63,100 bases of DNA, filler included, from Malassezia furfur (GCA_052055015.1; 9 parts of 9 records of this genome joined end to end with filler, not necessarily neighbours in it); one strand, 5' to 3'. Shown: positions 2,857 to 34,001, numbered from the whole stretch's first letter. Numbers and translations: made by a program. The notes: generated by a model not told the origin, from the letters alone.

Positions 2857-2870
2857 CCGAGCGCCCTCGC

Positions 2871-5531: not shown

Positions 5532-6382
5532 CTACTTGCGACCCTTGCCCTTGGCCTTTTTGGTGGTGATCGGCGTGCCCTCGCGCGCCTCGCGCCCACC
5601 GCTCATCCAGTCGAGGTCGCCCTCGTCAAACGACACGGCCTGCTCGACCTGCACGGCGGCCGCAGCGTCCTCGGCGAAGCGGCGGCGGAAGCGGCCGAGG
5701 CGGCCCGTGTCGTCCTCCGTGTCGCTCTGCGCCGCGCGGCCCATCGTCGGGTTCCACAGCGGGTTGTTGGTGATGTCGCGCGTGAGGCGCACGAGGTGGC
5801 GCGGCGACGTCGTCGTGAGCTGGATCGACGAGCCATCGGCAAGGATGACACGCTGCGGGAACTGCGCGACAGGGCGCGGCAGCGGCGCGGCGCGGGCGTC
5901 CGGGCTGGCGCGCGTCGCGTAGGTGCGGGCGTGCATCCTCGCGTCGGGCCGCGCGTGTGTGTGCAAGTGGGCCGAGGAGCACGGCGTGCGCCGGCCCTGG
6001 GTGCGCTGGATCTCGTCCATCGATGGCGCGCGGCGGGAGCGGCGGATGGTGTCGTTCGAGCCCAGCTCGGTGTCCTTGGTGAAGCGGAGCTCTGTGGTGA
6101 GCCTTTCCAGCACGTACTGTACTTGTGCGGGTCGTCCTCGCCTGCGACGCCCTGCACGACGTTGTGCCGGAAGAGCGCGGCGACCTGCTCGCCCATGGCG
6201 AGACCATCGTCGATTTTCTGAGCGTCGGTCTCGTTGCGAGCCTCGAGGAACCGCCGGCGGGTCTCGTCGTGTGCGGCACGCACTGCGCGCTCGTCACCCG
6301 CAAACACGGTGCGCGTCGTGCGCAGCAGCGTGCGGTACAGCGCGGTCGCGCGCCGCTGCTGCACGGGCGAAAAGGCCGACAT
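5532..6382 (-). CDS. Fusion of Mzm1/LYRM7 (complex III Rieske chaperone) and mitoribosomal bL31m (MrpL36); intron 6092-6117; 274 aa
   Basis: N-half: ALYRTLLR...FAGD...RHNVVQG...KDTELGSNDTI (Mzm1); C-half: VILADGSS...TRDITNNPLWNP...GRLGRFRRRF (bL31m); no stop between them. Confidence 0.85.
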
Positions 6383-6488
6383 GGTGGCTGTAAGACACGT
6401 GGGTCCACGTGATGTTGGCGGCGCAGCGACCGCGCCCCGGGAGGGTGGCAATCGGCCGGGCTGCGTCGACCACCACACCGATAGGAGG

Positions 6489-7058
6489 ATGGTGTCTGCC
6501 GGGGGACGAGTGTACGTCGCTACCACACTAACGCAGCTCGCGCAAGGTGCGCATCACCGTCGTGGCCGCAGATGGGCTCGCCAAGGTACGTGGGCCGCCG
6601 CCGTGCGGCGGGGAGGGCAGACAGACTAACCCCAGCGCGATGTGTTCCGCTTGCCGGACCCGTTTGCCATTGTCACCGTCGACGGCGAACAGACGCACAC
6701 AACGTCCGTCATCAAGAAGACGCTCAACCCGTACTGGAATGACTCGTTCGATATCACCGTGAACGACGCCTCGGTCGTCGCCGTGCAAATCTTTGACCAG
6801 AAAAAGTTTAAAAAGCGCGACCAGGGCTTCCTCGGCGTGATCAACGTGCGCGTCGCCGACGTCATTGACCTCGAGCTTGGCGGCAAGGCGCTGCTCACGC
6901 GCGACCTGAAGAAGTCGAACGACAACCTCGTCGTGCACGGCAAGCTTATTATCGACCTCAACACCAACGTCGGCGGTCCGGCCGACAATGCAGCGCCGCC
7001 GTGAGTGCCCCGGCGCCGCCGCAGGCGCCACGGGCGCGGCACGCACCGGCTCGTCGTG
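6489..7058 (+). CDS. RSP5: Rsp5/Nedd4 E3 ligase, N-terminal C2 domain (partial); introns 6512-6536, 6586-6635
   Basis: [49 protein letters not shown]...[17 protein letters not shown]. Confidence 0.93.
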
Positions 7059-7158
7059 NNNNNNNNNNNNNNNNNNNNNNNNNNNNNNNNNNNNNNNNNN
7101 NNTTAATTAATTAANNNNNNNNNNNNNNNNNNNNNNNNNNNNNNNNNNNNNNNNNNNN
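7059..7158. other. Artificial contig spacer (N44-TTAATTAATTAA-N44)
   Basis: 100-nt N run with a central all-frame stop linker, repeated identically 8 times. Confidence 0.99.
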
Positions 7159-7181
7159 CTCTGCTCTACTACTATACACCG

Positions 7182-7620
7182 CTAGGCAATATTCCGTAGG
7201 ACTGTGTGAGCGCTGTGCACCACCTACCCAGCACGACCGAGTCGCCACGCAAAAACATTTTCGAGATAAAGCGGTCCTTCTGTGGTGAGTGGGGGCGGCG
7301 ACGCACGTTGACGGGCTTCTTGTTCTTGCTTTTCGGCTGCGTCAGTGCTGGACACGTACCACCTCGGTCCACATCTCCTTGACGTTCTCGAGCACCATGT
7401 TCGAGTGCCGGTCAAACGCCTTGACGCGCGCGAGGAGCTTCTTGTTGTTCCGCAGCGAGATGAGCACCTGCGTGTGGTTGCGCACGGACTGCTGCAGCAC
7501 GGAGAGCGGCCCCTGCGAGATCTCGTACTGCTCGAGCTCGCGGATCTGCGCCTCGTCGAGCTCCGACTTGGGCACGTTCACGTATTGACTGCGTCAGCGC
7601 CGCGCCGCTGCCTACCTCAT
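7182..7620 (-). CDS. SMD2: Sm protein D2; introns 7589-7615, 7337-7359, 7280-7306, 7202-7227
   Basis: Spliced product [12 protein letters not shown]...[50 protein letters not shown]...[23 protein letters not shown]. Confidence 0.96.
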
Positions 7621-7668
7621 GGTCGCCGCGAGAAAGCCACGTGACCGACGTTTCTTCGCCCCGACCAT

Positions 7669-10100
7669 ATGAGCGTTACGGTAGTGCTGGACCCGGCCGC
7701 GCGGCTTCCGTTTGTGTCGCCGATCGTGCTGGTGAATGTCGCCGAGGAACACGGAAACAAGGACGTCAAGCTGGACTATGCAGTGAACGAGGGCCCCGCC
7801 GCGACGCTTGCCGACGGCCGCCGCGTCGAGGGCGGCCTGGCGGTGCTGCAGGCGCTCACGTCGCTGTATGCGCCGCTCGGCCTCGCCGGCAGCGACGCGG
7901 AGCGCAGCGCGGTCGACGCGTTTGTGGTGCAGTCGGACACGCTCGCCGCCGCGCCGTTCCAGGAGGCGACGCAGCGCGCCGACGACCTCGACCAGCACCT
8001 GGCGCTGCGCACCTACCTGGTCGGCCACCGCGTGACGGCGGCCGACGTGGCGATCTGGGGCGCGATCCGCTCGTCGTCGCCGCTGCTCGGCATCATCAAG
8101 AAGCACGCGCACACGCACCTCGCGCGCTGGTACGCTCACCTCGACGCGCTGCCGGCGTTTTCGTCGGCGGTGGCCGCCATGGCGCACGCCAAGAGCCACA
8201 TGTTCAAGGAGAAGAAGACGGCGGCGGGCTTTGACCTGTTCCTCAAGGGCGCGAAGGAGGGCGAGGTGGTGACGCGGTTCCCCCCTGAGCCGTCCGGCTA
8301 CCTGCACGTCGGCCACGCGAAGGCCGCGATCCTGAACCAGTACTTTGCGCAGGCGTACAAGGGCAAGCTTGTGGTGCGCTTTGACGACACGAACCCCAGC
8401 AAGGAGAAGCAGGAGTTTGAGGACTCGATCCTCGAGGACCTCAAGCTGCTCGGCATCACGGGCGACGTGGTGACGCACACGTCGGACTACTTCCAGGAGC
8501 TGCACGACCTCGCGGTGCGCCTGATCAAGCAGGGCGATGCGTATGCGGACGACACGCCGCAGGAGGAGATGCGTGCGCAGCGCATGGACGGCCTGCCGAG
8601 CCAGCGGCGCGACGCGAGCGTCGAGGAGAACCTCGCGCGCTTCGCGGAGATGTGCCGCGGCACCGACGAGGGGTGCCGGTGGTGCCTGCGCGCCAAGATG
8701 AGCGTCGACAACCCCAACAAGGCGATGCGCGACCCGGTGATCTACCGGTGCAACGTCGACACGCCGCACGCGCGCACGGGCACGACGTGGAAGGCGTACC
8801 CCACGTACGACTTCTGCTGCCCCGTCGTGGACAGCCTCGAGGGGATCACGCACGCGCTGCGCACGAACGAGTACCACGACCGGAACCCGCAGTACCAGTG
8901 GTTCCTCGAGAAGCTCGGCCTGCGCCACGTGGACATTTGGGACTACGGCCGGATGAACTTTGTGTACACGCTGCTGTCGAAGCGCAAGCTGCAGTGGTTC
9001 GTGGACCACGGCATCGTGCCCGGCTGGGACGACCCGCGCTTCCCGACGGTGCGCGGCATCCGCCGTCGCGGCATGACCATCGACACGATCCGCCAGTTTA
9101 TCCTGTCGCAGGGCCCCTCGCAGCAGATCGTCAACATGGAGTGGGACAACGTGTGGGCGCTCAACAAGCGCCTGCTCGACCCCGTGGTGCCGCGGTACGT
9201 GGCGCTGGACGAGGCGAAGCTCGTCCCGGCGACGCTCGCCAACGCGCCGCCCGCCGAGGAACGCCAGGTGCCGCGCCACAAGAAGAACCCCGAGCTCGGC
9301 ACCAAGACGACCGTGTTTGACGCGGCGATCCTCATCGAGCAGGCGGACGCCGCGTCGTTCGGCGACAACGAGGAGATCACGCTGATGGACTGGGGCAACG
9401 CGATCGTGCGCAAGAAGCACCTCGCCGCCGACGGCTCCGTCGCGTCGCTCGAGCTCGAGGCGAACCTCGACGGCGACTTCAAGGCGACCAAGAAGAAGGT
9501 GACGTGGCTCGCGCAGCCGAACGCGACGCGCCACCTGACGCCGGTGGTGCTGGAGGACTTCGACTACCTGATCACCAAGAAGAAGCTCGAGGAGGACGAC
9601 AAGTTCACCGACTTCCTCTCGCCGCAGACGCGCTTCACCACCGAGGCGCTCGCGGACGCCAACGTCGCCGCGCTCGCCGAGGGCGACGCGATCCAGTTCG
9701 AGCGCAAGGGCTACTTCATCCTCGACCAGGTGCAGGGCCCCGACGGCCGCCGCGTGTTTATCCGCATCCCGGACGGCCGCGCGGCGTCGAGCGCGAGCAA
9801 GGCGGCGCCCGACGAGAATCCCGCCGAGAAGAAGGCCGCCGCCGCCGCCGCGCGCGCGAAGAAGGCCGCGGAGAAGGCCGAGAAGGCGAAGCAGAAGGAG
9901 GCGAAAAAGGCCGCCGCCGGCGGCCGCGGCGCCAAGCCGGTCGCCGACTCGGTGCAGGGCCTGATCGACGAGGGCACGCAGAAGGTCAACATGTACGCGC
10001 TGCCCAACATCAACGAGCCCACCGACACGCAGCCGCAGAGTACGTCGTGACGTCACTGACCCGCTTAGCCAAGATGTACCACGTGCGGCCCATTATGTAG
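7669..10100 (+). CDS. GUS1: Cytosolic glutamyl-tRNA synthetase with GST-like N-domain; intron 10040-10068
   Basis: TRFPPEPSGYLHVGHAKA (HIGH), LSKRKL (KMSKS-like), GWDDPRFPTVRG, IQFERKGYF. Confidence 0.97.
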
Positions 10101-10134
10101 GCGCGCGCATTTCGTAGCTGCACGCGTTGCGACC

Positions 10135-10983
10135 ATGGCCGCGACCGCGACCGCGACCGCGACGCTCGGCCCGCTGCGCACGACGATCGTCGTCGCGGCG
10201 AGCATGCACAACGGCATCGGCGTCTCGGGCACGCTGCCGTGGCGCCTGCCGAAGGACATGGCATACTTCCGCGCCGCGACGAGCCACGTCGTCGACACGC
10301 CGCACGACGACGCGGCCATGGCCGCCGCGGGGTACGCGCGCCGCGCGGACGTGCGCGTCAAAAACGCCGTGATCATGGGGCGCCATACGTGGGACAGTAT
10401 CCCGCCGCGCTTCCGCCCGCTCACCGACCGCATCAACGTCGTCGTGAGTACGACCATGTCGGACGCCGACCTGGACCTCGGCGCGCCGGACCCCGACACG
10501 GTCGTCGTGCCGTCGTTCGAGAACGCCGTTGCACTCCTGCAGCAGCGGCGCCTCGCGCGGTACGTCGAGGGGAGCGGCGGCGCCGCGCTGGGGCACGCGT
10601 TTGTGATTGGCGGCGCGGCACTGTACCGCTACGTGCTGACGCACACGAGCGCCGACTGGACGCTCGATAGCCTGCTGGTGACGCGCATCTTTGCGCCGAT
10701 CGAGCCGTACGACGCGTGCGACGTGTTCTTGGCCGAGTTCCGCACGCCGAAGCAGCGCGCGTGGGAGGCCCAAGTCGCCGAAGAGTGCCTGTGCGCGCTG
10801 CCGACCGACGAGCGCGTGTGTGCCGACGAGGTGGACGACGCGGCCGTGTGGCGGCAGGCACCCGCGCACGAGCACCGCGCGTTTTTCGCGGACGCCGCGC
10901 ACGCCGCGCGTGTGTGCCAGCTGCTGGACGACAAGAGCAATGCGATCCAGTTTCAGTTGTGGCGCCGGCGGCACACAGCATAG
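10135..10983 (+). CDS. DFR1: Dihydrofolate reductase with insertions
   Basis: GIGVSGTLPWRLPKDMAYF, NAVIMGRHTWDSIPPRFRPLTDRINVVVS, FVIGGAALY. Confidence 0.93.
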   Translation: MAATATATATLGPLRTTIVVAASMHNGIGVSGTLPWRLPKDMAYFRAATSHVVDTPHDDAAMAAAGYARRADVRVKNAVIMGRHTWDSIPPRFRPLTDRINVVVSTTMSDADLDLGAPDPDTVVVPSFENAVALLQQRRLARYVEGSGGAALGHAFVIGGAALYRYVLTHTSADWTLDSLLVTRIFAPIEPYDACDVFLAEFRTPKQRAWEAQVAEECLCALPTDERVCADEVDDAAVWRQAPAHEHRAFFADAAHAARVCQLLDDKSNAIQFQLWRRRHTA

Positions 10984-11156
10984 GGCGGGGTGGCCGTGGC
11001 GTGCGCCACGGTAGCCTGGGTAGACTGTACGATCTATGGACGAGGTAGAGAAGGGTGCCGCGGCGGCGGGCGCCAGGTCGCCTTGCGCCGCCTCACACGA
11101 GCCACGTACATTTCTTCGATGGCGAAATTCGCGCGAATTCTTCGTGTGGAGGCACC

Positions 11157-12104
11157 ATGGAAGACCCCCGTACGGACGCCGCGAGCGTGCGCTCTGACGC
11201 CGCGCCCGCCGGCGTGCCAAGTGCTGAGCCGAGTGCCACGGCGCAGGGCACGGACGCGCCCGCGCCCGCTGCCCCCGCCGAGCGCTCGCGCGAGCAGGCC
11301 AAGCAATGGAAGAAAGAGCGCAAGTTGCAGGCGCAGCAGAAAAAGCAGGCGCCGGCCGCGCCGGCTGCGCCGGCGGCCGCCAAGCCCAAGCCGAACCGCC
11401 CGCCGCGCGATGCATCGCCTGCCGTGCAGCTGTCCAAGGCGTTTGCGTACATGCTGCGGCACGGCGCCGAGAAAGAGTTTTTGGCGATCCGCCCCGACGG
11501 CTACATCCGGGTGGATGCGATCCTGGCGCGCCCCAAGCTGCAAAAGATTGCGATGCCCGCCGAGGACGGCACGACACGCGCGCCGAACGCCGACGATGTG
11601 CGCGAGATGGTGCGTGCGAGCGACAAGCAGCGCTTTGCGCTTGCGAGCGGGACGGCCGAGGCGCCCGAGGGCGCTGGCGACGTGCTGTGGGTGCGTGCGG
11701 TGCAGGGCCACTCGCTCGCGAGCGTGACGGAGCTGGACCTGACGCCGCTCACGCGTGCGAATGTGGGCGAGCACCTGTCGGAGGTGGACGGGTACCACTA
11801 TGCGATCCACGGGACGACGGTGGAGGCGTGGTCGGCGATCGTCGCGAGCGGCGCGCTCAAGACCATGGGCCGCAACCACATCCACCTTGCGCGCGGCCTG
11901 CCGGGTGCGTCGGGCGTGATCAGCGGCATGCGCGCCACGAGCACGCGGCTGGTGTGGGTGGACGTGGACCGTGCGCTGTGCGACGGCGTGCCGTTCTTTG
12001 TGTCGGCGAACGGGGTGGTGCTGACGAGCGGGCGGGACGGCGCGCTGCCGCTGAGCTATGTGCGTGTGGTGCGGGACGAGCGTGGGGTACAGGTATGGCC
12101 GTAG
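11157..12104 (+). CDS. TPT1: tRNA 2'-phosphotransferase
   Basis: LSKAFAYMLRHGA, DKQRF, VRAVQGHS, IHGT, MGRNHIHLA, SANGVVLT. Confidence 0.93.
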   Translation: MEDPRTDAASVRSDAAPAGVPSAEPSATAQGTDAPAPAAPAERSREQAKQWKKERKLQAQQKKQAPAAPAAPAAAKPKPNRPPRDASPAVQLSKAFAYMLRHGAEKEFLAIRPDGYIRVDAILARPKLQKIAMPAEDGTTRAPNADDVREMVRASDKQRFALASGTAEAPEGAGDVLWVRAVQGHSLASVTELDLTPLTRANVGEHLSEVDGYHYAIHGTTVEAWSAIVASGALKTMGRNHIHLARGLPGASGVISGMRATSTRLVWVDVDRALCDGVPFFVSANGVVLTSGRDGALPLSYVRVVRDERGVQVWP

Positions 12105-12107
12105 CGA

Positions 12108-13318
12108 CTACACGAGGATCATGGGCTGTTCGGTGAGCACGAACGGGTACACCTCCTGCTCGAGCAGGTTGGCGAACTCGCCCGGCGTCTCCTGCGTGGC
12201 GGGCGCGTCGTGCTTGGCGCTGCGCTCCTTGCCGAGGTACTCGTCGAGGTACGCGTACTCGCTCACGAGCGACTTGAGCAGCTGCTTGATGCGCCGTGCG
12301 TTCGGCCGAAGGATCGACACGGCGTAGTTGGGCGGGAGGCCGAAGCGCAGGACGCTCTCGATAAAGGTGCGCACGGCGCGGTAGTGGATCAGGGCCTGGA
12401 ACGCCTCGCCAAAGTTGACGCGCGCGAGGCGCACGAGCTCCGTCCAGAGCTCCTTCTCCGAGGCGCCGGCCTCGTCGAGCTCGCGGCGCTCGCGCTCGAG
12501 CTGCTCCTCGTCGTAGGTAAAGTCGCGCACCTGGAACTTGTTCTCGCGCGCCTTTTGGATGAACTGCTGCTCGACCTTCTTGAAGACGGTGACGTTGAAC
12601 AGGGCGTACTCGTCGTCCTGCGCGAGCTCCGAGGAGGAGCGCGGGACGACCATCGGCGTGAGGCGCTCGTACTTGTCGAGCCACGTCGCCTTCTGCGTCT
12701 TGGGCACGACGACGAGGAGCGTCACGAGGAAGTCGGAGCGCGCGTCCACGACGTCGTCCTTGTGCACGATGTCGGCCAGGGAGCACATGGACAGGTTGCC
12801 GCTGGGTGAGAGGAGGAGACGTACTGCTTCTTGCGCTCGAGCTGCTGGAGCTGCCCCTTGGCGAGGTTGTAGTTGTTGATCTTCTGCTTCATGATGTTGT
12901 CGACGGTCTGCATCTCGCGCGTGAACGCCTCGATGAGGTCCGGCAGTGCGCGGTCCGCGCGGTACTTGCTGGCGTTCCAGTGCCAGTGGAGCAGATAGTC
13001 GTCGACGCCCTCGTCCTCGACGACCATGTGCTCGTTCATCGCCTGGACGTCGTCGTTGAAGAGCGAGTGCAGCGCGTCGACGATGCGGTTGACGACCGAC
13101 TCAAAGAAGGCGTCGGTGCGCGGCAGGTCCTCGGACAGCGAAATGAGCGTCTCGAGGGTGCCCGTCTTGAGCGCGGGGAGCGGCATTGGCGCGATATCGG
13201 CGGCCTCCAGCGCCCCGTCACGCACGAGGCGCTGTGCGAGGTCCTGCTGCATCTGCTCCGCGCTCTTCTCCTCCTGCACGGGCGCACTCACGATCCAGTA
13301 GCTCGTGTCGGACGGCAT
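12108..13318 (-). CDS. VMA5: V-ATPase subunit C; intron 12802-12824
   Basis: LKTGTLETLISLSEDL, WNASKY, YERLTPMVVPRSS, FIESVLRFGLPP. Confidence 0.95.
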
Positions 13319-13366
13319 TGCGATGGCCGTGCGTGCCGACCCGGCGGGTGGCCACGTGGCTTTTCG

Positions 13367-14180: not shown

Positions 14181-14280
14181 NNNNNNNNNNNNNNNNNNNN
14201 NNNNNNNNNNNNNNNNNNNNNNNNTTAATTAATTAANNNNNNNNNNNNNNNNNNNNNNNNNNNNNNNNNNNNNNNNNNNN
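14181..14280. other. Artificial contig spacer
   Basis: N run with TTAATTAATTAA. Confidence 0.99.
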
Positions 14281-16856: not shown

Positions 16857-16931
16857 GCACCCTCTTGTACAGTAGACGACACGACCTGCTTCGCACACCT
16901 CCACCGTGTTGTTCCCCTTGGGCTGCTCCAC

Positions 16932-18736: not shown

Positions 18737-18756
18737 TGTACATCACCCCTGAAACG

Positions 18757-21221: not shown

Positions 21222-21321
21222 NNNNNNNNNNNNNNNNNNNNNNNNNNNNNNNNNNNNNNNNNNNNTTAATTAATTAANNNNNNNNNNNNNNNNNNNNNNN
21301 NNNNNNNNNNNNNNNNNNNNN
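21222..21321. other. Artificial contig spacer
   Basis: N run with TTAATTAATTAA. Confidence 0.99.
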
Positions 21322-24031
21322 TCCACGCGTCCCAGAACGCGGGCTGCGTCTTGGGGTTGCACAGCTGGCTCGTGTGCGCATAGATCGCCCGCGCGCGGTC
21401 CACCTCGCCGAGCTTGCGCTCCATCGCCGCAAAGCGCTGTCCGATGCGCGCCGCCTCGCGGTCCGGCAGCGACTCGAGCGCCGCCTCGTAAATCGGGCGC
21501 GTCGCCGCGAGGCCAAAGTGCGCCGCGGCCTTCGCGAGGTAGAAGAGGTACATCGTGTAGCGGTCGCCCGCCGCCACCGCGCGCGTCGCGCGCTCGTAGA
21601 TCGACATCGCCTTGCGCAGCAGGCCGTGCTCCTCCTCGAACGCGCCGTACTGCATGTAGATCATCTTGGCAAACTTCGGCGGGCACTTGTCGAGCGCCTG
21701 CTCAAACAGGTCGCGCGTGCGCTCCAAACGCGAGCCGCCCTGGGTCAGTGGGTGTGCGGGACGTACGTAGCGCTTGACAAACTTGCTCAGGTACACGTTC
21801 CACAGCTCAAACGCCACGGGGTACGTAAACACCTCGACGCCGCGCTCGTACACCTTGAACGACTCCTCAAAGTAGTGCTGCTCCTCGAGGAACAGCGCAT
21901 AGTTGAGGATCGTCTGCGCGTTGGCGATCTTCAGCTCCATGATCCGGTCGAACGCGTGCTTGGCGCTCTCGAGCGAGCCGAGCGACTCCTGCAGGTCGGT
22001 GTACAGCCCCCACACACGCAGGCTCTTGAACAGCCGGCTCTGCGGCGGGAGCGCATCGTCGTAGTACGACACAGCCTTGATCTTGTGCTGCCCCGTCGGG
22101 CCGCTCGTCGCGCGCGACAGGACGCGCAGCGCCTCGTCGTAGTGCCCGTGACGCACCTCCATCTCCGCCCAGCTGCACCACACCTCGGCGAGGTCGTCGA
22201 CGCGCCGGAACGGCACCTTGACCGCCTTCTCGAGGATCTGCCGCGCGCCCGCCAGATCCGGCACGGCGTGCGCGGGGTCGGTGCGTGCGGCCGCGCCGCC
22301 CTGCTCGTAGAAGCGCGCAAAGTGCAGGTACAGCTGGTGCAGGTTCGGCGTCGCCTTGCGCGGGTTGATGGTGTCGATCGCCTGCTTGTAGGTCGCGACG
22401 ACCTCGGCGTCGTTGTCGCCCCACAGCGCCACGCGCTTCTCCCACTCCTGCACGTCGTCGGGGTTGCGCCGCAGCAGCACGTCGTTCACCAAAAAGGGGC
22501 GGCGCTCCATCAGCTCCTCAAACGCCTGCATCCGCCGGTCGACTTCCGCCTCGCGCTCGGCGAGCGACGCGCCTTCCTCGTCGTCCTCGTCGTCCTCGTC
22601 GGGCTCCGCCAGCTCGTCCATCAGGAAGCGGATCACGTTCTCGCTCGTCTCCGCGTACGCGTCAAAGATCTGCGTAAAGTCGCGCACGGTCAGCACCTGC
22701 TTCATGCCCTGCTCAAACGTGTCGTGCGCCGCGTCAAAGTCGCCGCGCTTGATGTAGTACGTCGCGAGGCCCGTCCACAGCCGGCCCGCCTGGTCGGGGA
22801 AGCGCGCCAGCCCGTCGCGCTCCACAATCCGCCGCACCGGCAGGCGCGCAGGGTCCTCGGCATCGCCCTCGGCGCGCGCCAGCGCCGCGTCGTCCTCGGC
22901 GAGCGCCGCCTCTTCCTCGCGCGACAGGCCCGTCTCCTCGGGGAAGCGCTCCGTCAGGTCGAGCCACTCGAGCAGCAGCTGGTACGCGCTCTTCCCGTCG
23001 GGGCTCGTGTACGTCCCATCGAGCGCCCGCCGCGCGAGGCGCAGCAGGATCTTGGCGGCCTCGAGGATGCGCCGCTGCGCCACATCGTCCACATCCTCCT
23101 CGTCCTCGTCCGCGCGCGGCGCATCCGCACGCGCGATGCTGTTCTGCGCACCGTCCGCATAGTGCAGCGCGCCGGCATGCTCGACGAGCATCGTCACGTA
23201 CCGCTCCGACAGACTCGGGTCGACCGCCAGGTAGCGGCGCCACACTTTTTGCGCGACGATCCCGCCGCACAGCTCCGCCCACCGCAGATACACCTTCCAC
23301 ACGCGCAGGTGCAGCGAGCCGGGCAGCGTGCGCAGCGCGCGGTCAAACGTGCGCCGCGCATGCGTCCGGCTCAGCGCCGGCGAGCATTTCGGGTGCACAA
23401 ACAGCGCGAGGTAGTCGAGCCACAGCCGCGGCATCGTCGGCAGCCACATGAGCGCGCGCTCGTACGCGGCCGCGAGGCTGCGCCACTCCTGCCAGCCCAG
23501 CACGCCGTCGAGCCCAAACTCGTACACGTTCGCCTCCTCTTCGGCCTTGCGCGCGTCGAGGAGCGTCGGGCCCATCTCGGACACGTGGTTCGTCTGCAGC
23601 ATGCGCTTGCGCGCGGCCGCCGCGCCGCCGCGCATCTCGCCTAGCACAAAGCGCGCGCGCGCGTCCAGGTAGCGGTGCCAGAGGCGGTACGAGCGGGGGA
23701 ACTGCGCCAGCGCACGCTCGTACACACTCACGATGCGCTGCAGCGCGAGGCGCTGCGACGCATCCGAGAGCAGGCCCAGCAGCTGGACGCCCTCGGACGA
23801 CATGCCCGCGTCGGGCAGCGGGCGCTTGCGGTAGTTGGTCTCCTCGACATGCGCAATGTACGAGTTCCACGTGCGGAAGTTGTCCGGATTGCGCAGCAGC
23901 TCCTGCTCGAGCACGAGGTCGTCCGCAGGCACGAGCCCGTCGTGCGTCGCCGGCGACGGCACGGGGAACGTCAGGGGAAAGAGCGACTCGTACCGCGCAT
24001 ACTCGGACGCGCCCTCCGCCGCGGTCGCCAT
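21322..24031 (-). CDS. SYF1: NTC splicing factor Syf1/XAB2 (3'-partial); intron 21740-21766; alternative start at 24094
   Basis: EQELLRNP, RRTFDRALRTLP, TVRDFTQIFDAY, RRPFLVNDVLLRRNPDDVQEWEKRV, FEESFKVYERGV HAT repeats. Confidence 0.95.
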
Positions 24032-24092
24032 CGCGTCGTCGTCGTCGAAGCGAATCTCGGCCGATGCGAGGTGGAGGCGCCCGCTTCGCGAC

Positions 24093-24701
24093 ATGCCGCG
24101 CGGTGCGCCGCAGCGTGTGGGGTCGCGCGTGTCGATCCCGGTGAACGTGCCGGACGACGAGCTGGATGCGTACATCACCGAGATGATCCTCGCAGAGGCT
24201 CGCGCGAACGAGGAAGCGTACGCGCGCCGCGGGCCGGCCGCCGAGGCGTTCGCCAGCGCTTCGGCGCGGTCGGCGCCGCCGGCGCGCACCAACAAGCGCT
24301 TCCTCGCGACCATGATCCGCAGCGTCGACGCACACAACCAGCGCCAGGAGGCCAGCGAGGCACGGGCGTCGCGGCACCGTACGCACGCGCGCGCCGCCGA
24401 CGACCGCGCGGGACTGCGGCATGCGCGCGCGGGGCTCGACCGCTTCGTCCAGCGCGCCTTGGCCGACCGCGCAGGCGCTCGCACGCACCGCGAGGCGAGT
24501 CCCGAGCGCACCCCACGCACACACACACAGCCTGCACGTGCAACGAGCCGGTGGGACCAGCGGCCCTCTGACGCCGAGCGCACGCCCCGACGCGACGCAC
24601 CGCCGCCGTTGCGCCGTGCGCCCTCCTCCTCACCCGAGATGGGGCCGCAGCCTGCGCCGCCCGTGCGGCAGTGGGACCTGGGGAAGGAGCGTGATCTATG
24701 A
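24093..24701 (+). CDS. Conserved fungal hypothetical protein
   Basis: DDELDAYITEMILAEA...TNKRFLATMIRSVDAHN...VRQWDLGK pattern; fills the space between SYF1 and the GH5 gene. Confidence 0.6.
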   Translation: MPRGAPQRVGSRVSIPVNVPDDELDAYITEMILAEARANEEAYARRGPAAEAFASASARSAPPARTNKRFLATMIRSVDAHNQRQEASEARASRHRTHARAADDRAGLRHARAGLDRFVQRALADRAGARTHREASPERTPRTHTQPARATSRWDQRPSDAERTPRRDAPPPLRRAPSSSPEMGPQPAPPVRQWDLGKERDL

Positions 24702-24702
24702 G

Positions 24703-26956
24703 CTACGCGGCGCGGTACGCGAGCACGGCGACCAGAAGAGCACATAGCGCCGCTAGCAGCATGATACCCTGCATCGAGTCGCGCGCGCCGCCCGCGCCTT
24801 GGAGCGTGACGTGGTGCACAGCACCCGGCGTGTGCACGGCGTGGTAGATGTACAGCGTCTGCTCCTCGGGCACGTACTTGTACGTGCCGTCGCTCAGCTG
24901 CACATGCGGCGCGTGTTCGCGGAACACGTAGTCGGGCACATACACCTCGGTCGCCGCGCGGCACTCCTCCGGCCCGTTGCGCCAGGAGAAGCGCAGGGTG
25001 CGCCGCGATGCATCCCACGCCGTGGACACAGGCACGCCCGCAATCTTGCACGCATACGGACGGAGCACGGCGTCGAGCGCACGGCCGCCGCGGTACACCG
25101 TCTCGTGCGCGCGTGCGTTTTGGCGGTCGGCGGCGTGCGTCTCAAAGTTGACCAGCGAAAAGTCTTCCTGGTTCCACCCGTCGCCGTGCGCGACCGTGTT
25201 GGCGGGGTTGTAGTTCCACAGCGTGAACGAGATCAGGTTGCGCTCGAGGCCGGACACGAGCGCGCTGAGCAGCGTACGCTGCACGTCGTACACGCCCGGC
25301 GTCCGCCGCAGCGTGTCGTTCACGTCAAACGGGATGCCGACCTCGCCCACGACGATCGGCACATCGCCCAGCGCCGCATACCCGCGCTGCGTCAGCTGCC
25401 GCAGCTGGTGGTAGTAGTTGCGCGCGAGGCCTCGCGCGCCAAAGTAGAGCGCACACAGGATAAACATGCCGCGGCTCAGGCCCTGCACGTTGACGCTCAT
25501 CCCGCGGTACGCCTTGAAGAAGAGCACGTTCAAGTCGTAAAAGTGGGGGCCGTACACCAGGTTCGCGGGCTGTGCGTCGGGGATCACGGGGTCGGACGCC
25601 GTGCCCAGAGGCTTGGCGCCCACGCCCCAGCGAGGCATAAACTCGTTGGGGATCGGCTCGACGAGCAGCAGCGCCGTGGGTGCGATGCGGTGCAAACTGG
25701 GTCAGTCACTAAACGTACCGCTCGGCAAACGCTTCGACGAACGGCGCATAAAAGTCGCGGTAAAACTCGACGCGCCGCCGCCCGTGCCCGGGGCGCGGGT
25801 CGACGGAGAAGTAGTCGGCCTGCAGCACCACGGGCTTTTGGTTCTTTTCGTTCCACGCCCACACACCGTGCTCGCGCCAGACGCACCCGTCGCTCCGCCG
25901 CGTGCTGGGGAAGGGCGCAGCAGCTCGATCGATCCACACGCGCGACGGCGGCGCAATGTGCGTCCGGTGCGACATGCGCGAGGGGAACGGCCACGACTTG
26001 ACGTAGAACGGGATGTCCTGCGCGTGCCCGTCGCCGAGCGCAAAGCTCTCGAGCGCCGAGGGGTAGTGACCGATGTGCAGGTCCGTCTCGTAGCACCACC
26101 GGTCGAAGGAGTACAGGTTGATGTAGCCGCGGTGCGGCTCGTTCATCAGGTCAAAGCCGGCCAGCGCAGGGCACGAGCGGAGCGCCTCGGCGAGCTGTGC
26201 AAACGCCTCGATGTACGATGCCTGCAAAAAGTCTTGGATGTTTTCCGGCTGCGCACGGCCCGCATGGTCGGTCGCCAGGCAGAGGTTCGGCGCAAACGTC
26301 CGGCCGCCCCAGAAGAGCGTCGCCATGGTCGCCGGGGCCATTTTTTGGTAGCCGGATGGCCAGTTGAACGGGCCGGTCGGCTCCTCCTTGCCCGCAGGCG
26401 GCACACTGGCGAGCGCTTCGCCGCCCGCGTCGGGGACCAGCGCCGTGGCCGTCGCGTTCAGCCGGCGCGGGTCGAGGCCGGCGGCTTCGAGCGTCCACCC
26501 CGGCGCACCACTGCCACCACACAGCCGGCTCCATACGTCCTGGTGCGCGCACACGATGCACTTTAAGCCAAACTCGTCCATGATCGCAAAGAGCGCCTGC
26601 AGGTAGGCGACGTAGTCGGCGTCAATGTCGTACGCGGGACACGGACCCGCATGCGACAGTGCCTCCCACGTCACCAGCAGACGCACAAACGTCAGGCCCC
26701 ACTGCTTCAGCCGCGCAAAGTGCTCGCGTGCCTCGGTGAGCGGGAAAGGTCGGTCGACAAACGACACCTGCGTATGGTCCACATACGTGTCTCCGGCGGA
26801 GCTCGGGCTGCGTCAGCGGTACGCGTACAGTTTGCTCACGCCGGCCAGATTCACGCCGCGCAGCAGCAGCGTGCGCCCACGCTCATCGGCAAGGAACCGT
26901 CCACGACGCCCGAGGCGGCCGCCCAGCGCCTCGGAACTCAGATCGGCTGCAGGCAT
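24703..26956 (-). CDS. GH5 endoglycoceramidase-related protein (EGCrP/Egh1 family glucosylceramidase or sterylglucosidase) with C-terminal TM; introns 26808-26828, 25697-25718
   Basis: GRTLLLRGVNLAG, SFVDRPFPL, HQDVWSRLCGGSGAPGW, NEP acid/base motif, VGEVGIPF nucleophile, WNYNP, WNQEDFS. Confidence 0.9.
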
Positions 26957-26980
26957 GGTGTGTGGAGAAACGGCGAATTT

Positions 26981-28239
26981 TTACAAACGGTCTACGGAAT
27001 CGGCGTCCGTGGACGGCTCCTGCGGCGGGGGTGCGGGGCGACCTGCGCGTGCACTCCGCCATGCGGGCGACGTGGGGGGCAGGGGGGTCGTGGGCGATGT
27101 GGTCGACAGCGCTTCGTGCTGCGACACAGAACGACCAAAACGGGATAGACTCGGCGTAGACAAAGGAGTGTGTCGTGCGGCATAGAAGGCCGTGGACCGG
27201 CTCGACGGCTCGAGGCGCGCGTACGGCACGCCGTCGCCCGGCTGGAACGACATGTGCACCGCTGATGTCTGCCGCGGGCTCGGCGAGGGGTACGCGTTGG
27301 AGGCATAGCGCGGCGAGCCTACAGGCTGCATCTCGCGCGCGCTCATGGAGGCGCGCGGTGGACTCAACATCCGCGCCGTTTCCTGGCGCCGTAGTGCGCG
27401 CTCTTCTTTGCCCAGTGCAATGAGCGTGTCGGTGAGGCTGCGCACATGGTCGTCGCTGTGCTTGAGCAGGTCGCTCAAGTTGGTGTCCAAGGTATCCACG
27501 AGCCCTTCCATGGGCTCGTACGCCGGCTGCAGTGCCAGCGACATGCGCACTTCGAGCGAAGCGCGGATGGTACGTCGCAGGCCGTTGTTGACCTCCTCCG
27601 CGAGGCGCACCGCCGCGCCGAGCTGCTGCACCAGTTCGGAGGTGGGCTCCGATGTACGCTCCAACTGCTCGAGTGCCAGGCGCAGATTCCGTGTGTGGGG
27701 CTCGAGAGGGGCCGACTCGGGCGTGCTGTGATGCGACATCGAGCGTCGCAGCTGCGCGGGTGCCGTCGCACTCCGGTGGGCCTGAGGAGTCTGTGCTAGG
27801 TTCCGCATCGACATGGACGCAAGGCGATGCGAAATGTCCGCGTGCATGTACTCGTCGCCAAAGTCGGGCTGTGCATCGGTGCTTTGACGCGACTCCATCG
27901 AGGCTCGCGGGTGGTGCACCGGAGTCGTGCGCGTGTTTGGCGTGGTACGAAAGGCATACGAGCTCGTACGCCGGCGCGAAGGCGTAGTGGATGCTGGCGC
28001 AGACGCCTCACGAGGCGCGGGCGCTGCGTGTGGGGGCTCGGTGGCCGACGTCGGTGCGACGCGCGGCGCTGGAATGTCGCCCCCCGCGTCCATACTACGG
28101 CGTGCGCGGCGATACTTGGCGGCGACAGAGGGTGACTCGCTGCCGTCCTTGCGCTCGCGTGCAGTTGACGCGTCGGCATCGATCGCGCGCGTGATTTTGT
28201 CCGCGAGGCGCGCGATCTCCGACTCGTGCTGCTCGCTTC
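26981..28239 (-). CDS. Hypothetical protein, 5'-partial (Ser/Pro-rich with a helical segment)
   Basis: Long open frame running in from the contig edge; no family recognised. Confidence 0.55.
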
Positions 28240-28339
28240 NNNNNNNNNNNNNNNNNNNNNNNNNNNNNNNNNNNNNNNNNNNNTTAATTAATTAANNNNN
28301 NNNNNNNNNNNNNNNNNNNNNNNNNNNNNNNNNNNNNNN
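28240..28339. other. Artificial contig spacer
   Basis: N run with TTAATTAATTAA. Confidence 0.99.
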
Positions 28340-28368
28340 CGCACCTTGTCGTCGTGGGGTCGATCGCG

Positions 28369-29599
28369 ATGGACGATTCACGGCCTGTTGTCGTGGACAA
28401 CGGTACTGGCGTACGTACCAGCTCTAATCGCAGTTTGTCAAGGTCGGATATGCGGGCTCCAATTTCCCGGAGCACGTCTTCCCTTCGATTGTCGGCCGGC
28501 CCATCCTCCGCACCGAGGAGCGGGAGTCCATCTCCGCGAATGGCGTGGAGATCAAGGACCTGATGGTCGGCGACGAGGCCGAGGCTGTGCGCAGCTATCT
28601 CCAGGTGACGCAGCCGATGGAGCACGGTGTCGTGAAGGATTTCGAAGACATGCGTCACGGTATGTCGCTTGTTCTCACGCAGTGTGGAACTATACGTTTG
28701 ACGAAAAGCTGCGGATCAACCCGCAGGGTCGCAAGGTGCTCCTTACTGAGCCACCGATGAACCCCAAGAAGAACCGCGAAGAGATGTGCCGCATCATGTT
28801 CGAAGAGTACGGCTTCGATGGTGTCTATGTCGCGATTCAGGCGGTGCTAACGCTCTATGCGCAAGGTCTCCAGACCGGTGTGGTCGTCGATAGCGGCGAC
28901 GGTGTGACGCACATTGTGCCCGTGTACGAGGGCTTTGCCATGCCGCATCTGACGCGCCGCCTCGACATCGCAGGCCGCGACGTGACGCGCTACTTGATCA
29001 AGCTGCTTTTGCTGCGTGGCTATGCGTTCAACCGCACCGCCGACTTTGAGACAGTGCGCCAGATCAAGGAGAAATTGTGCTACGTCTCGTACGACCTCAA
29101 CCTTGACAAGAAGCTGGCGGACGAGACGACAGTCCTGGTCGAGTCGTACACGCTGCCCGACGGTCGTGTGATCAAAGTCGGGCCGGAGCGCTTCGAAGCA
29201 CCCGAGTGCCTCTTCCAGCCGCATTTGGCCGGACTCGAGCAGGCTGGTATGGCCGAGATGCTGTTCCAGACGATCCAGAGTGCGGCAGTCGATGTGCGCT
29301 CGGAGCTGTATAAGCACATTGTGCTCAGTGGTGGCAGCAGCATGTACCCCGGTCTTCCCAGCCGTCTCGAGAAGGAGATGAAGCAGTTGTACCTCTCGCG
29401 TGTGCTGCAGGGTGATGGAAGCCGACTCAATAACTTCAAGATCCGTATCGAGGACCCGCCGAGGAGGAAGCACATGGTATTCTTGGGCGGTGCGGTCCTG
29501 GCCGACATCATGAAGAACCGCGACAGCTTCTGGATCAGCCGCCAAGAGTGGTATGAAAAGGGGCCTGCGGCACTCGATCGTCTGGGTCGCAATGCATAG
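28369..29599 (+). CDS. ARP2: Actin-related protein 2; introns 28411-28433, 28660-28682
   Basis: [61 protein letters not shown]. Confidence 0.97.
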
Positions 29600-29798
29600 C
29601 GAATGTAGACGCGCCAGAAGCAGTCTTGCCGACATGCGCAAGCCCAGGCCTCCACACGGAGCGCCGTGGCCTTGGCTACCCGCGTGGGGGGCCAGGCACA
29701 AGGAACACGCACAAAGTATGAGACACTCATGTATTTGTGCCTACGCGAAACAGGACTTGTACAATAGAAATACACTATTTAATTAATCAGGAATGCAC

Positions 29799-30800
29799 TT
29801 AGTGGCGGAGGCGCTTGCCGATCTCCGACTGCCAGTTGGAGGCACGCTCAAAACCGTTGCGAGCCATCTGGAAGTCCTCCATAGCCTCGAAGATCTCCTT
29901 CTTGGAGCACATCACGAAAGGACCGTACTGCACGACGGGGTGATCAAGCGGCTCTCCGGCGATCAGGATTACGCGCGCGGGCTTGTCCGTCGGGTTGCTA
30001 ATGCGGACACCATCGTTGTTGCTAAGCACGGTCTTGGCTTCCTCGGCAGTGTCCGTCTTCAGGGCAGGGTTAGACAGGATAAGAGTGTGGTACTGGTCAT
30101 GCACATCCTTGCTGTCGCCAACCTGGACCTTGCCGTCAGCGACGTAAGCAAAGGCATTCCAGGTGTGCGGAATCTCTTGGAAGATCCAACCGCCCGGCTG
30201 AAGCTTGATGTCCATGTAGTAGCACCCGCCGTTCTCCGGCAGGCGCACGGGCGACTCCACACCGTGGCTCTTGCCCGAGATCACCTTAACTTCCCAGCCT
30301 TCGCCCTCGGTCTCCTTCGGCTCCGAGGTACGCGGCGTTTGCACAGGAAGATCCTTACCCGAGAACTCCTGGTAGGAGGGGTCGATCTTCTTCGACGCGG
30401 CAGGCAGGTCGATCCACAGCTGCATACCAACAGGGGTAGGCAGCGGCTTGCCCTCCTTGTCGCGGTGGAGAGGCATTTCGGCATGCATGATACCACGGCC
30501 GACCATCATCCACTGGATGTCACCGGGGCCGATGATGCCGCGGTGGCCGGCAAAGTCTTCGTGCTCCATGTACCCGTCAAACATGTAGGTGACGGTGGTC
30601 TGGCCACGGTGGGGATGGTCGGCGAAACCGGCACCCTCACCAACCTTGAAGTGGTCAAGCATCAGGAAGGGGCTGAAGTTGCGGAGCTGAGCGTTGCCAA
30701 GGGCACGGCGCACGCGAGCACCGACGCCTTCGCCCTGCTCGACTGCGTGAATTTGTTGAACAACCTTGCGAGAGATTTGTTGCATTGCGCGAGAACTCAT
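29799..30800 (-). CDS. Pirin (bicupin), intronless; start could be 30839, 30800 or 30785
   Basis: EGVGARVRR, PFLMLDHF, GFADHPHRGQTTVTY, HEDF, GRGIMHAEMP, QLWIDLP, PVVQYGPFVM. Confidence 0.93.
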   Translation of the reverse strand: MSSRAMQQISRKVVQQIHAVEQGEGVGARVRRALGNAQLRNFSPFLMLDHFKVGEGAGFADHPHRGQTTVTYMFDGYMEHEDFAGHRGIIGPGDIQWMMVGRGIMHAEMPLHRDKEGKPLPTPVGMQLWIDLPAASKKIDPSYQEFSGKDLPVQTPRTSEPKETEGEGWEVKVISGKSHGVESPVRLPENGGCYYMDIKLQPGGWIFQEIPHTWNAFAYVADGKVQVGDSKDVHDQYHTLILSNPALKTDTAEEAKTVLSNNDGVRISNPTDKPARVILIAGEPLDHPVVQYGPFVMCSKKEIFEAMEDFQMARNGFERASNWQSEIGKRLRH

Positions 30801-30841
30801 TTGATTTGAAATGTAACGAAATGACGAGCTCGCGAACATGG

Positions 30842-30849
30842 TTTTTATA
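30842..30849 (-). promoter_or_regulatory. Candidate TATA box of the pirin gene
   Basis: TATAAAAA on the minus strand about 40-55 nt upstream of the likely starts, next to an AT-enriched intergenic region. Confidence 0.5.
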
Positions 30850-31202
30850 CCTTCAGAGGGACCGTCCCATCGGGCCGCCACGACTGCACTTGGGCCCAAA
30901 CGCTACGGGATTAATTTAGCGATAACACCGTTTTAGACTTTTTAGGCCGTGTTAGAAAAAAATCCGCACGCAACATGACGCTGTCGGACAGAAGATTTCG
31001 ATTGCGGGCGGCCCAAACGCCGTGTCACGATTACAAATAAAAATGGACCTAAAAGGTACCCTTAGGATGTTACGGCGTAGCGACTTATGATCGTCATGTA
31101 TTTACCTAATAGGCTAAAATCCGTGCCCGGCATGTTGGTGGCCTTGTAGGCCCGTGTCTCGAATCTTCGAGCTGCTCGCTTGCACGACGCACGATCGAAC
31201 CC

Positions 31203-34001
31203 ATGTGGCGAGCGCAGCCGGGCGTCTCGTGGACCGATCTCGGCCTGGTCGCGAAATCGGCAGGGCGCTTGGCGCAGCAGGTGGCCTTAGCGCGCCCACA
31301 GGCGCCTGCAGCTGCTGCGGGTGCGTGGCCGACGCAGCGCTCCGCACCGGAAGAAAAGGAGGGTGTGTGGGATGCGACCCCTCGTGCCGCTCCGTCGGCG
31401 CCATTCCCAGGCGCTGCGCAACCAAAACGCGCGCCAAGCACACCATGGCCCTCGAAGCAGGCCGCGGGTCGTGAGTCGAGCCGTGTTCCGGAGCAACCTG
31501 CACCGGTTGCATCGCCGGTGCCGCCGCAAGAAGAACGGCGTGCATCGGTCTCAACTGAGCCGTCCACCCCGGTCAGCGGCGAGGCGCCCATCAAGGCGCG
31601 TGTGGATGCGCCGACATTGGAGCTGAGGAGTGCAAGCGCGTCGCGCACGGATGCGCCGGAGCCGTCTTTGGCAAGCTCAAAGCCGTCGGCGCCGTCGGCG
31701 CCGACGCGCGCAGATGCCGCCGCCGAGGTCGCACAGGGGCTTGAGCAGACAGCTGCAACGGCCGTGCGAGGTGCTGCAGAGACCGTGAAGGAGAATGCGA
31801 CTCCGTCAGCACACACCGAGTCGACAAACGCAGCCCCTATCTCCCCGAGCGCTGCAGTGGTCGAGGACGAGTACGATGCGGCGACCGAGGAGCGTGCGAC
31901 GCCGCTGCGTGCGGCTCGTGTGCCCTCGTCGCGTCTTGGGCGCCTACTGCATTATGGAAGTCTGGGCGCTGGCCTCGCATGGGGCTCGGCGGGCGAGTAT
32001 CTGCGCCGCGCGACGGGTCCGTCGGACGCGTCTGGACGTTCGTCGCCGTTCCTGTCGGAGGCCAACGTGAACCGACTGGTGGATAAGCTGAGCACGATGC
32101 GTGGCGCGGCGCTCAAGCTCGGCCAGTTCCTGAGCATTCAGGATAGCCACATGCTCCCGCCTCAGATCGAGCAAGTGATGCTGCGTGTGCAGAACAGTGC
32201 GCACTACATGCCGGCATGGCAGCTGGAGCGTGTGATGCGCGCCGAGCTCGGAGACGACTGGCGTGCGTCGTTTGCGTCGTTTGACGAGCGGCCGTTTGCC
32301 GCGGCGTCGATCGGGCAGGTGCACAGTGCCGTGCTCGCCGACCCGTTCCCGGCGCAGCCTGATATGGCGGGCCAGCGCGTGGCGGTCAAGGTGCAGTTCC
32401 CCGGTGTGGCTGACTCGATCTCGTCCGACTTGTCGAACATCAAGTGGCTGCTGATGGCCTCGTCGTTGCTGCCGAAAGGCCTGTTTCTGGAAAACAGCGT
32501 GCGCGTGCTGCAAAAAGAGCTCGAGGAGGAGTGCGACTACACGCGCGAGGCCGAGATGGGTCGCCGCTTCCGTGCGCACATCGACGCTGGAGGCGGTGCA
32601 CCCGAAGCGCTGCGCCTCGAGGTGCCGCGTGTCGTTGATTCGCTGTGCACCCCCCGTGTGCTGACGACCGAGTTTATGCGCGGCCGGCCGCTGACCAAAG
32701 TTATGCAGCTCGACGCTGCGACGCGCGACCGCATCGGCCTGACGGTGATGGATCTGAGCCTGCGCGAGCTGTTCGAGTGGCGCCTGATGCAGACGGACCC
32801 GAACTGGACCAACTTTTTGTACAGCGAGCGCAACCAGAGCCTGCAGCTGATCGACTTTGGCGCGACGCGGCCCTACACGCCCCAATTCATGGACGCATGG
32901 ATCAGCCTGCTCCGTGCCGCCGTCGCGGGCGATCGCGAGGCGTGCGAGGCGTGGAGCGTCGCGATCGGCTACCTCAACGGCGAGGAGCCCGAGGTACGTT
33001 GCCGCCCCATCACTGACCCAGACCATGCGCAAGGCCCACGTCGACTCGATGGTCGCGCTCGGCGAGCCGTTCCGTGCGTCGGCGCCGCAGCCGTTCCCTT
33101 TCGCGAACCAGACCATCACGGACGAGGTGCGTGCGCAGATCCCCGTGATGCTGCGCGAGCGGCTGCGCCCGCCGCCGCCGGAAACCTACTCGCTGAACCG
33201 CAAGCTGAGCGGCGCATTCTTGTTGTGCGCACGCCTCGGCGCGCACGTCGACTGCCGTGCATTGTTCGAGCGGATCACAAACGCCTACGTGTACAGCGAC
33301 GGAACGCACAACCCCCCCTCGCCCGGCGCGTTTGCGCGCAGCGGCGCACGTGGCCTGCACACCAAGGCCGCTCGACAGCGTGCGTAGCGTGGGCTCACGC
33401 AGGACTCGGGCGCAACTTGACCGACGTGTGGGCGCGTTATCCCCTCGATGAGATGCTTGCGCAAAAGATCGCGGCCGAGGACCGTGCGGATCCCAACATG
33501 GCCGTGCCGCGGCCCAAGATTGAGTTTGTGGGCCGCGCGGCGTCGGAGCCGACTATCAACTACCTTTCTTCGGAACAGATCCGCCCCGAGGCCGCGGGGA
33601 CCGTGCGGGTGCGTGGCATCGACGTGCCGCTGCGGCCCAACCCCCCCGGTGCGGAAGACTGCTGCATGTCGGGTACGTGCGCTGCTGACAAATAAGGGTG
33701 TGTCAATTGCGTGTACAATCTGTACGCCGACGACGTGGAGGAGTGGAAGGAGGAGATGAGCGCAATCCGCGCGCGCCTGGCGGACGCTTCGCCGCCTATC
33801 ACTACGGAGGAGTGGAACCCCAAGAAACTTGGCCCGCTGCCCGGCGAGTCGAATGCCGAGGTGAAGGAGGAGGAGGCCGAGGAGGAGGCCGCGGTCGGCA
33901 CCGAGGACCCGACACTGCAAGCCTTTTTCCAGCTCGAGCAGCGCATCACACGCAAGCACCGCAATGCGGCCAAAGCGGCTGAACGGAGTTCCGAACTATA
34001 G
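31203..34001 (+). CDS. COQ8: Coq8/ABC1 atypical kinase, extended by splicing into an Oxidored-like (Oxld1/YPL107W-like) domain; introns 32994-33021, 33380-33402, 33673-33696. Coq8-only form ends at TAG 33387
   Basis: MRGAALKLGQ, FAAASIGQVH, AVKVQFPGV, MQTDPNWTNF, DFGA, PPPETYSLNRKLSG; distal part PNPPGAEDCCMSGCVNCVYNLY...LQAFFQLEQR. Confidence 0.85.

Follow-up and report, generated by a model that had tools for sequence, protein, structure and literature searches.

The 63,100 nucleotides (nt) from Malassezia furfur (GCA_052055015.1) analysed here (the window) contain two genes in each of which proteins that are separate elsewhere share one reading frame: Mzm1/LYRM7 joined to the mitoribosomal protein bL31m (fusion 1), and Coq8/ABC1 joined to an Oxidoreductase-like (OXLD1-type) protein (fusion 2). 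Mzm1, bL31m, Coq8 and OXLD1 are mitochondrial matrix-side proteins. Judged by sequence comparison, both loci are very probably genuine and ancient fused genes, each encoding a composite mitochondrial precursor that would be cleaved internally, and neither is likely to have been driven by genome compaction. An earlier note on this DNA had proposed two fusions of mitochondrial proteins on unrelated contigs, each with a linker resembling the presequence of the downstream protein, and had ascribed them to compaction. The existence of the fusions is upheld by matches to Pfam and PDB families, by the fused frames and by collinear relatives; they lie on separate fragments (1 and 5) divided by runs of N; and the likeness of linker and presequence is supported by conserved motifs and by standalone bL31m N-termini that align to the linker of fusion 1. 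The explanation by compaction, discussed below, did not hold.

Fusion 1 lies on the minus strand at positions 5532-6382, encodes 274 amino acids (aa) and contains one 26-nt intron. Its parts, in the order of translation, are as follows:

6118..6382, minus strand: exon 1, start codon (ATG 6382-6380) followed by the three-helix LYR part of Mzm1/LYRM7 (Pfam Complex1_LYR, PF05347, expectation value (E) 1e-07)
6092..6117, minus strand: intron of 26 nt, GTACGT..CTCAC..CAG, whose removal restores the frame
5973..6091, minus strand: first part of exon 2, the conserved Mzm1 C-terminal segment (LRFTKDTELGSNDTI ... PCSS), in which the T, E, L and G columns of the orthologue alignment are invariant
5883..5972, minus strand: linker of ~30 residues (~129-158), with an internal Met codon at 5936-5934 and the motif R-T-Y-A-T at 5913-5927
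5532..5882, minus strand: bL31m part (LPRPVAQFPQRVILADGSS ... KGKGRK) with the stop codon 5534-5532 (Pfam bL31_N, PF21492, E 7.7e-07)

Splicing of the 26-nt intron yields HKYKLRFTKDTELG, which matches the proteins of M. furfur and M. brasiliensis. Exon 2 is a single open frame in which the C-terminus of Mzm1 passes into the linker and then into bL31m, so that fusion 1 is independent of any intron call. The upstream half possesses the LYR three-helix domain and the C-terminal TELG(S/N)N segment of LYRM7/Mzm1, and UniRef names its orthologues Mzm1; AlphaFold models residues 1-70 of the M. furfur orthologue as three helices, with a predicted local distance difference test (pLDDT) of 79-93. The bL31m half scores 29.1 bits for PF21492 against a cut-off of 27, and it matches mitoribosome chains among the PDB sequences (Neurospora crassa 6yw5_V, E 2e-07; yeast 3j6b_V, E 2.7e-06). 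Residues 2-29 of the fused protein are basic and acid-free in a crude scan for such stretches.

Fusion 2 lies on the plus strand at positions 31203-34001 and encodes 907 aa in four exons, separated by introns of 28, 23 and 24 nt:

31203..32993, plus strand: exon 1, N-terminal region and kinase-like domain of Coq8/ABC1 (Pfam ABC1, PF03109, E 1.5e-63, 214.6 bits)
32994..33021, plus strand: intron 1, 28 nt, GTACGT..CTGAC..CAG; the joined frame is collinear with homologues
33022..33379, plus strand: exon 2, the Coq8 C-terminus (LSGAFLL at 33205-33225), then the linker with R-G-L-H-T (33349-33363), as judged by tail comparison and motif
33380..33402, plus strand: junction intron, 23 nt, GTGCGTAG..CTCAC.CAG; its retention leads to an in-frame TAG at 33385-33387
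33403..33672, plus strand: exon 3, which encodes the Oxidored-like protein from its N-terminal part, with the conserved LGRNLTDVW (33405-33431), as far as CCMSG (Pfam, first half of the domain, E 4.5e-05)
33673..33696, plus strand: intron 3, 24 nt, GTACGT..CTGAC..AAG, within the Oxidored-like domain; splicing restores CCMSGCVNCVY as in homologues
33697..34001, plus strand: exon 4, which completes the Oxidored-like domain and carries the C-terminus and the stop codon 33999-34001 (Pfam E 3.5e-07 and 1.8e-08)

The start of this gene agrees with the models of M. yamatoensis and M. psittaci, and the closest named matches of its upstream half are Coq8/ABC1 proteins; one Logan/ENA protein cluster is 100% identical to it. 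For PF09791, the domain with the pattern CCxSGCxxCV(Y/W), exon 4 reaches 30.2-34.4 bits against a cut-off of 24, while exon 3 falls slightly below the cut-off (23.5 bits) because the 24-nt intron splits the domain. The spliced product is collinear through the junction with fused proteins of relatives, and the motif GRNLxDR[WF]PR is kept across Ustilaginomycotina. Fusion 2 requires removal of the 23-nt intron 33380-33402, since the unspliced frame ends after Coq8 and the linker. Its stop codon and that of the convergent COX5A gene (34020-34022) are separated by 18 nt, so that the 3' ends of both transcripts must overlap or be extremely short.

An alternative reading is that the halves of each gene are expressed separately in spite of their common frame. 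The 23-nt intron would then be retained, Coq8 would end at the TAG 33385-33387 and the Oxidored-like protein would start from the Met codon at 33453, while bL31m would start from Met 5936 on a transcript of its own. Internal Met codons are indeed present in both fusions, and several public annotations contain a short Coq8. The DNA of relatives is informative on this point. One scan of metagenome contigs for related loci returned 80 loci, and three of these possess an intron at the junction position of the window that likewise starts with GTGCGTAG: L001 and L004 (2802-2829 in both, 28 nt) and L002 (2820-2862, 43 nt). Plain enumeration of GT..AG pairs was ambiguous here; consensus 5' sites gave a single sensible intron in L001, L002 and L004, none in L003 and several in L006, and L003 and L006 likewise change frame at the junction. 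The junction intron is in phase 1 in the window and in the three related loci, and the shared GTGCGTAG start in this phase means that retention produces an immediate in-frame stop in all four, as separate expression would have it. The GTGCGTAG start may mark a splice-dependent switch, or it may merely reflect the 5' splice-site consensus.

Other observations speak against separate halves. In L005 the Coq8 C-terminus, the linker and the Oxidored-like domain (57.9 bits in Pfam) lie in one uninterrupted open reading frame (ORF; 2492-3283), with neither intron nor stop at the junction; this locus has lost the junction intron entirely. The protein P0078, from a Logan assembly, is the spliced, fused product of an L002-like locus, and since other Logan proteins such as P0063 run straight through introns, it was presumably derived from complementary DNA (cDNA). 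A start at Met 33453 would sacrifice the conserved GRNLxDR[WF] segment together with any targeting signal. In fusion 1 there is no stop codon between Mzm1 and bL31m, so that translation of Mzm1 reads on, and a Met between the halves is absent in 7 of 28 orthologues and not conserved in position where present; internal AUG initiation can therefore not be the general source of bL31m. Taken with the evidence from L005 and P0078, this makes separate expression of the halves highly improbable.

The short public Coq8 models are better viewed as casualties of the introns, as the earlier note had anticipated when it warned that annotation would miss such fusions. Those of M. pachydermatis, M. cuniculi, Tilletiopsis washingtonensis and Jaminaea rosea all pass the normal end of Coq8, three of the four also pass the linker motif, and each of them ends shortly beyond this motif, at the junction intron; the public model of M. 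brasiliensis omits part of the Oxidored-like domain. These models (P0064, P0072, P0082, P0091 and P0138) are likely annotation errors caused by tiny introns.

Intact fused proteins are already visible in public annotation, and their distribution bears on the age of both genes. For fusion 1, all 17 organism-named matches of a query spanning the junction within exon 2 are Ustilaginomycotina proteins of 244-324 aa with at least 93% query coverage, the closest being from Malassezia furfur (95% identity). They represent nine Malassezia species as well as Exobasidium, Sporisorium, Ustilago, Melanopsichium, Kalmanozyma, Tilletiaria, Thecaphora and Ceraceosorus. A profile search contributed 14 further named rows from Ustilaginomycotina, adding Pseudozyma, Testicularia, Violaceomyces, Meira, Tilletia, Microstroma, Parajaminaea and Sympodiomycopsis, and the orthologue alignment has both halves in one chain. 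An exhaustive hidden Markov model (HMM) search of 1.84 billion representatives gave 1,418 matches, and among the best 150, which were inspected, about 14 span the junction and the others cover the Mzm1 half alone or the bL31m half alone. Standalone bL31m is found in Ganoderma (148 aa) and Vanrija (169 aa), and standalone Mzm1 in Lichtheimia (125 aa).

The picture for fusion 2 is similar. PF03109 and PF09791 occur together in 28 of 120 listed Coq8 rows, and every named one of these belongs to Ustilaginomycotina, including UMAG_02464 of U. maydis (956 aa); among the matches listed, none of the 49 named rows from Pucciniomycotina, Agaricomycotina and Wallemia has PF09791 in Coq8. The Coq8 tail beyond LSGAF measures 26-34 aa in seven outgroup basidiomycetes versus 197-345 aa in full fused models of Ustilaginomycotina. 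In the basidiomycetes examined outside Ustilaginomycotina, as in yeast and Neurospora, bL31m and Coq8 each occur as proteins of their own. From this distribution, each fusion appears to have a single origin, no later than the base of Ustilaginomycotina, and to have stayed in frame since.

These results bear directly on the model of compaction, in which the loss of intergenic space fused tandem mitochondrial genes wherever a linker could be made of the downstream presequence, and which predicts many more hidden polyproteins. Several features of the window would suit such a process. Two fusions in ~40 genes correspond to a 95% Clopper-Pearson interval of 0.6-17%, if the window is treated as a random sample; packing is very tight, as between the stops of fusion 2 and COX5A; and public models of relatives end at the junction intron. 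Furthermore, the five introns examined (6092-6117, 32994-33021, 33380-33402, 33673-33696 and approximately 34347-34372) are all 23-28 nt long, with GT[AG][CT]GT at the 5' splice site and, 5-9 nt ahead of the 3' AG, a box CT[CG]AC that resembles a branch site; for comparison, a mean intron size of 30 bp is given for M. sympodialis (Table 2 of PMC5389616). However, the window was flagged for holding two fusions, so that the rate of two in 40 is biased upward, and the three other mitochondrial genes recognised in it are standalone: NCA2 (760-2853), PIF1 and COX5A, which begins at an ATG of its own (34465) and includes a presequence and a 26-nt intron. Above all, both fusions are ancient and occur also in the large genomes of Exobasidium (where the gene is located on contigs of 7.1 and 5.5 Mb), U. 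maydis, Tilletia, Meira and Sympodiomycopsis, a result that the earlier note had itself named as refuting its model. Compaction of the Malassezia genome is thus an extremely improbable origin. Since the fusions are retained alike in small Malassezia genomes and in the much larger genomes of smuts and Exobasidium, they are best regarded as lineage markers and not as products of compaction.

What the two genes have in common beyond their age is the nature of their linkers. These vary in sequence and in length (about 55 to 125 residues in orthologues), and one arginine motif is conserved in them. As a measure we scored the published ICP55-type motif RX(F/Y/I/L)(S/A)(S/T) (section 7 of PMC8847149). 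It is present in 27 of 32 fusion 1 linkers, with 31 matches in 2,832 linker residues versus none in the 6,856 residues outside. Both linkers fall within the few basic, acid-free stretches of their proteins (two such regions in fusion 1, three in fusion 2). Moreover, when standalone bL31m representatives are aligned with the profile of the fused protein, the match begins at about position 120-140, i.e. their presequences fall onto the linker.

These features suggest a common route to two mature proteins. Each precursor would be imported by the N-terminal signal of its upstream half, and the mitochondrial processing peptidase (MPP) would cut it internally at the arginine motif of the linker, releasing two separate proteins; in fusion 1, where the motif R-x-Y/F is followed by S/A-T, subsequent trimming by Icp55 is probable. 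The linker itself would most simply be the former presequence of the downstream gene. We consider it likely that each precursor enters as one chain and is then cleaved by MPP, if less firmly so than the fusions themselves.

The alternative to cleavage is that both genes encode uncleaved bifunctional proteins, with Mzm1 acting at the mitoribosome and the OXLD1-type protein acting with Coq8 in coenzyme Q synthesis. In-frame maintenance of the fusions across a subphylum would be in keeping with this, domain fusions are often taken as functional links (PMC11293456), and the motif of fusion 2 deviates from the published ICP55 motif. On the other hand, variable and disordered as these linkers are, they conserve a single feature, an arginine motif like those at which presequences are cleaved, and linker length ranges more than twofold, as given above. 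In addition, there is precedent for cleavage, as studied tandem precursors such as Arg5,6 and Rsm22-Cox11 are reported to be cleaved (PMC4381221, PMC8734313). The AlphaFold model of the M. furfur orthologue of fusion 1 has a disordered linker (pLDDT <50 for residues 122-149) and no confident packing between domains, with a predicted template modelling score (pTM) of 0.35; it agrees weakly with independent modules, yet a cleaved and an uncleaved protein would be compatible with it alike. Taken together, uncleaved bifunctional proteins seem rather unlikely, and composite precursors with internal cleavage remain the preferred explanation.

Several observations weigh against this explanation. The outgroup state of fusion 1 is known from few named sequences, and in Agaricomycotina Mzm1 is annotated as fused to other partners (see below), so that its ancestral state is not simply standalone. 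The N-terminus of fusion 2 is not flagged as presequence-like by the crude scan for basic, acid-free stretches. The published motif is present in 4 of 26 fusion 2 tails; a variant R-x-[FYIL]-[HY]-x with His at the fourth position occurs in 23 of the 26 Ustilaginomycotina tails, but it was defined post hoc. The strict motif is also found in the first 80 residues of only 4 of 26 standalone bL31m proteins, most of which have R-x-V-S-S; the claim that the linker is an ancestral presequence therefore rests on alignment position and on this looser resemblance. Finally, the sequences behind the distribution and motif counts are related, hence the counts do not represent independent events.

The remainder of the window provides the background to these two genes. 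It consists of fragments that were joined artificially, so that gene neighbourhood across the joints is meaningless:

7059-7158, 14181-14280, 21222-21321, 28240-28339, 35250-35349, 42222-42321, 49193-49292 and 56149-56248: N-run joints between the nine fragments of ~7 kb, each joint consisting of two runs of 44 N around 12 bases

G+C content is ~62-72% across most of the 63.1 kb, with fusion 1 on the first and fusion 2 on the fifth fragment. Pfam scans covered 241 ORFs (150 + 91) and were made per ORF, not on spliced models; the wider ORF sets were used because an ORF filter based on G+C content at third codon positions (GC3) missed real genes such as Coq8. Within this scope, about 38 gene-like units received a Pfam label and several more remained unlabelled, which agrees roughly with the count of about 44 genes given previously, and no further ORF paired domains of two unrelated proteins, in line with the earlier note, which had seen no comparable fusion of non-mitochondrial proteins. 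An apparent N-terminal extension of ~480 aa in the Syf1 ORF was considered as a fusion and rejected: Syf1 starts at an internal Met, and the part upstream overlaps a GH5 gene in another frame. Between the stop of this GH5 glycosidase gene and the Syf1 start lie ~700 nt (23990-24705, minus strand), which is long for such a dense genome; an unlabelled small gene or an extended untranslated region (UTR) may be located there.

Mzm1 is the N-terminal half of at least three different annotated fusions, with bL31m, with an RF-1/GGQ-domain protein and with a partner of ~550 aa. In gene models, the RF-1/GGQ fusion is annotated in Phlebiopsis, Calocera, Fomitiporia, Exidia and Serendipita vermifera, and the fusion to a ~550-aa region lacking a Pfam match in Rhizoctonia and Ceratobasidium. 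The proteins concerned come from the HMM matches of fusion 1:

P0339, P0346, P0348, P0352, P0271, P0303 and P0311: Mzm1 fusion proteins of Agaricomycotina

RSFST or RSYST occurs in the linkers of four of the Agaricomycotina models, which could represent real tandem precursors or merged gene models. That composite precursors are a systematic habit of Basidiomycota, with dozens per genome, and that the GTGCGTAG intron in addition acts as a splice switch between Coq8 alone and Coq8 with OXLD1, is a broader proposal that we regard as quite doubtful. Such a switch, if true, would tie OXLD1 function to coenzyme Q biogenesis.

Whatever the fate of this proposal, the two genes are of use in several respects. 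As composite precursors present throughout a subphylum, they would offer natural substrates for the study of internal MPP cleavage and of the reasons for which unrelated mitochondrial proteins are co-translated. Both would be clean shared-derived characters for Ustilaginomycotina, and the link of Coq8 and OXLD1 provides a cheap, testable lead on OXLD1, a family of unknown function. They also expose recurrent annotation errors in Malassezia and its relatives that result from introns of 23-43 nt.

Comparison with known systems begins with the standalone proteins, since Mzm1/LYRM7, bL31m (yeast MRPL36, PDB 3j6b_V / 5mrc), Coq8/ADCK3 and OXLD1 belong to the same families as the fused halves but are separate proteins; the yeast member of the OXLD1 family is YPL107W. 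A literature search, outside which the supplements of PMC11293456 lay, found no description of an Mzm1-bL31m or a Coq8-OXLD1 fusion. Fusions of LYRM proteins as such have been catalogued: as in fusion 1, a LYR protein forms the N-terminal part of a multi-domain mitochondrial protein, and possible cleaved tandems have been suggested (PMC4381221). According to a survey of 2024, fusions or extensions are present in about 10% of Lyrm7 sequences (PMC11293456). The available passages of both papers do not name bL31m as a partner (PMC4381221, PMC11293456); supplementary table S3 of the latter may list one.

Khalimonchuk et al. (2006) are said to have described Rsm22-Cox11 of Schizosaccharomyces pombe as a tandem protein that is cleaved after import. 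Like Mzm1-bL31m, it combines a mitoribosome-related protein with a respiratory-chain assembly factor (PMC4381221, PMC8734313). It differs in that the ribosome factor lies upstream, i.e. in reversed order, and in that, as far as these sources go, it is confined to fission yeast, while the fusions described here extend across a subphylum. Atp25 resembles them in being the precursor of two proteins of unrelated function, including one that binds to the mitoribosome, and it is split by MPP (PMC5063612, PMC8734313); the proteins themselves are different, and three MPP cuts are reported (PMC5063612).

More generally, the natural composite mitochondrial precursors so far on record are few, and PMC8734313 names Arg5,6, Atp25, Etp1, Rsm22-Cox11, SPAC22A12.08c and rice RPS14, with internal MPP cleavage established for Arg5,6 and Atp25 and predicted for Rsm22-Cox11, Etp1 and rice RPS14. 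Arg5,6 unites two successive enzymes of a single pathway, an arrangement that parallels a bacterial operon (PMC8734313), whereas the partners found here share no known pathway and their cleavage is predicted. In its architecture, however, Arg5,6 of S. cerevisiae (arg-6 in N. crassa) is close to both fusions, as each possesses one ORF for two matrix proteins, an MPP-type motif in a presequence-like segment at the junction, and conservation across a large clade (PMC8734313).

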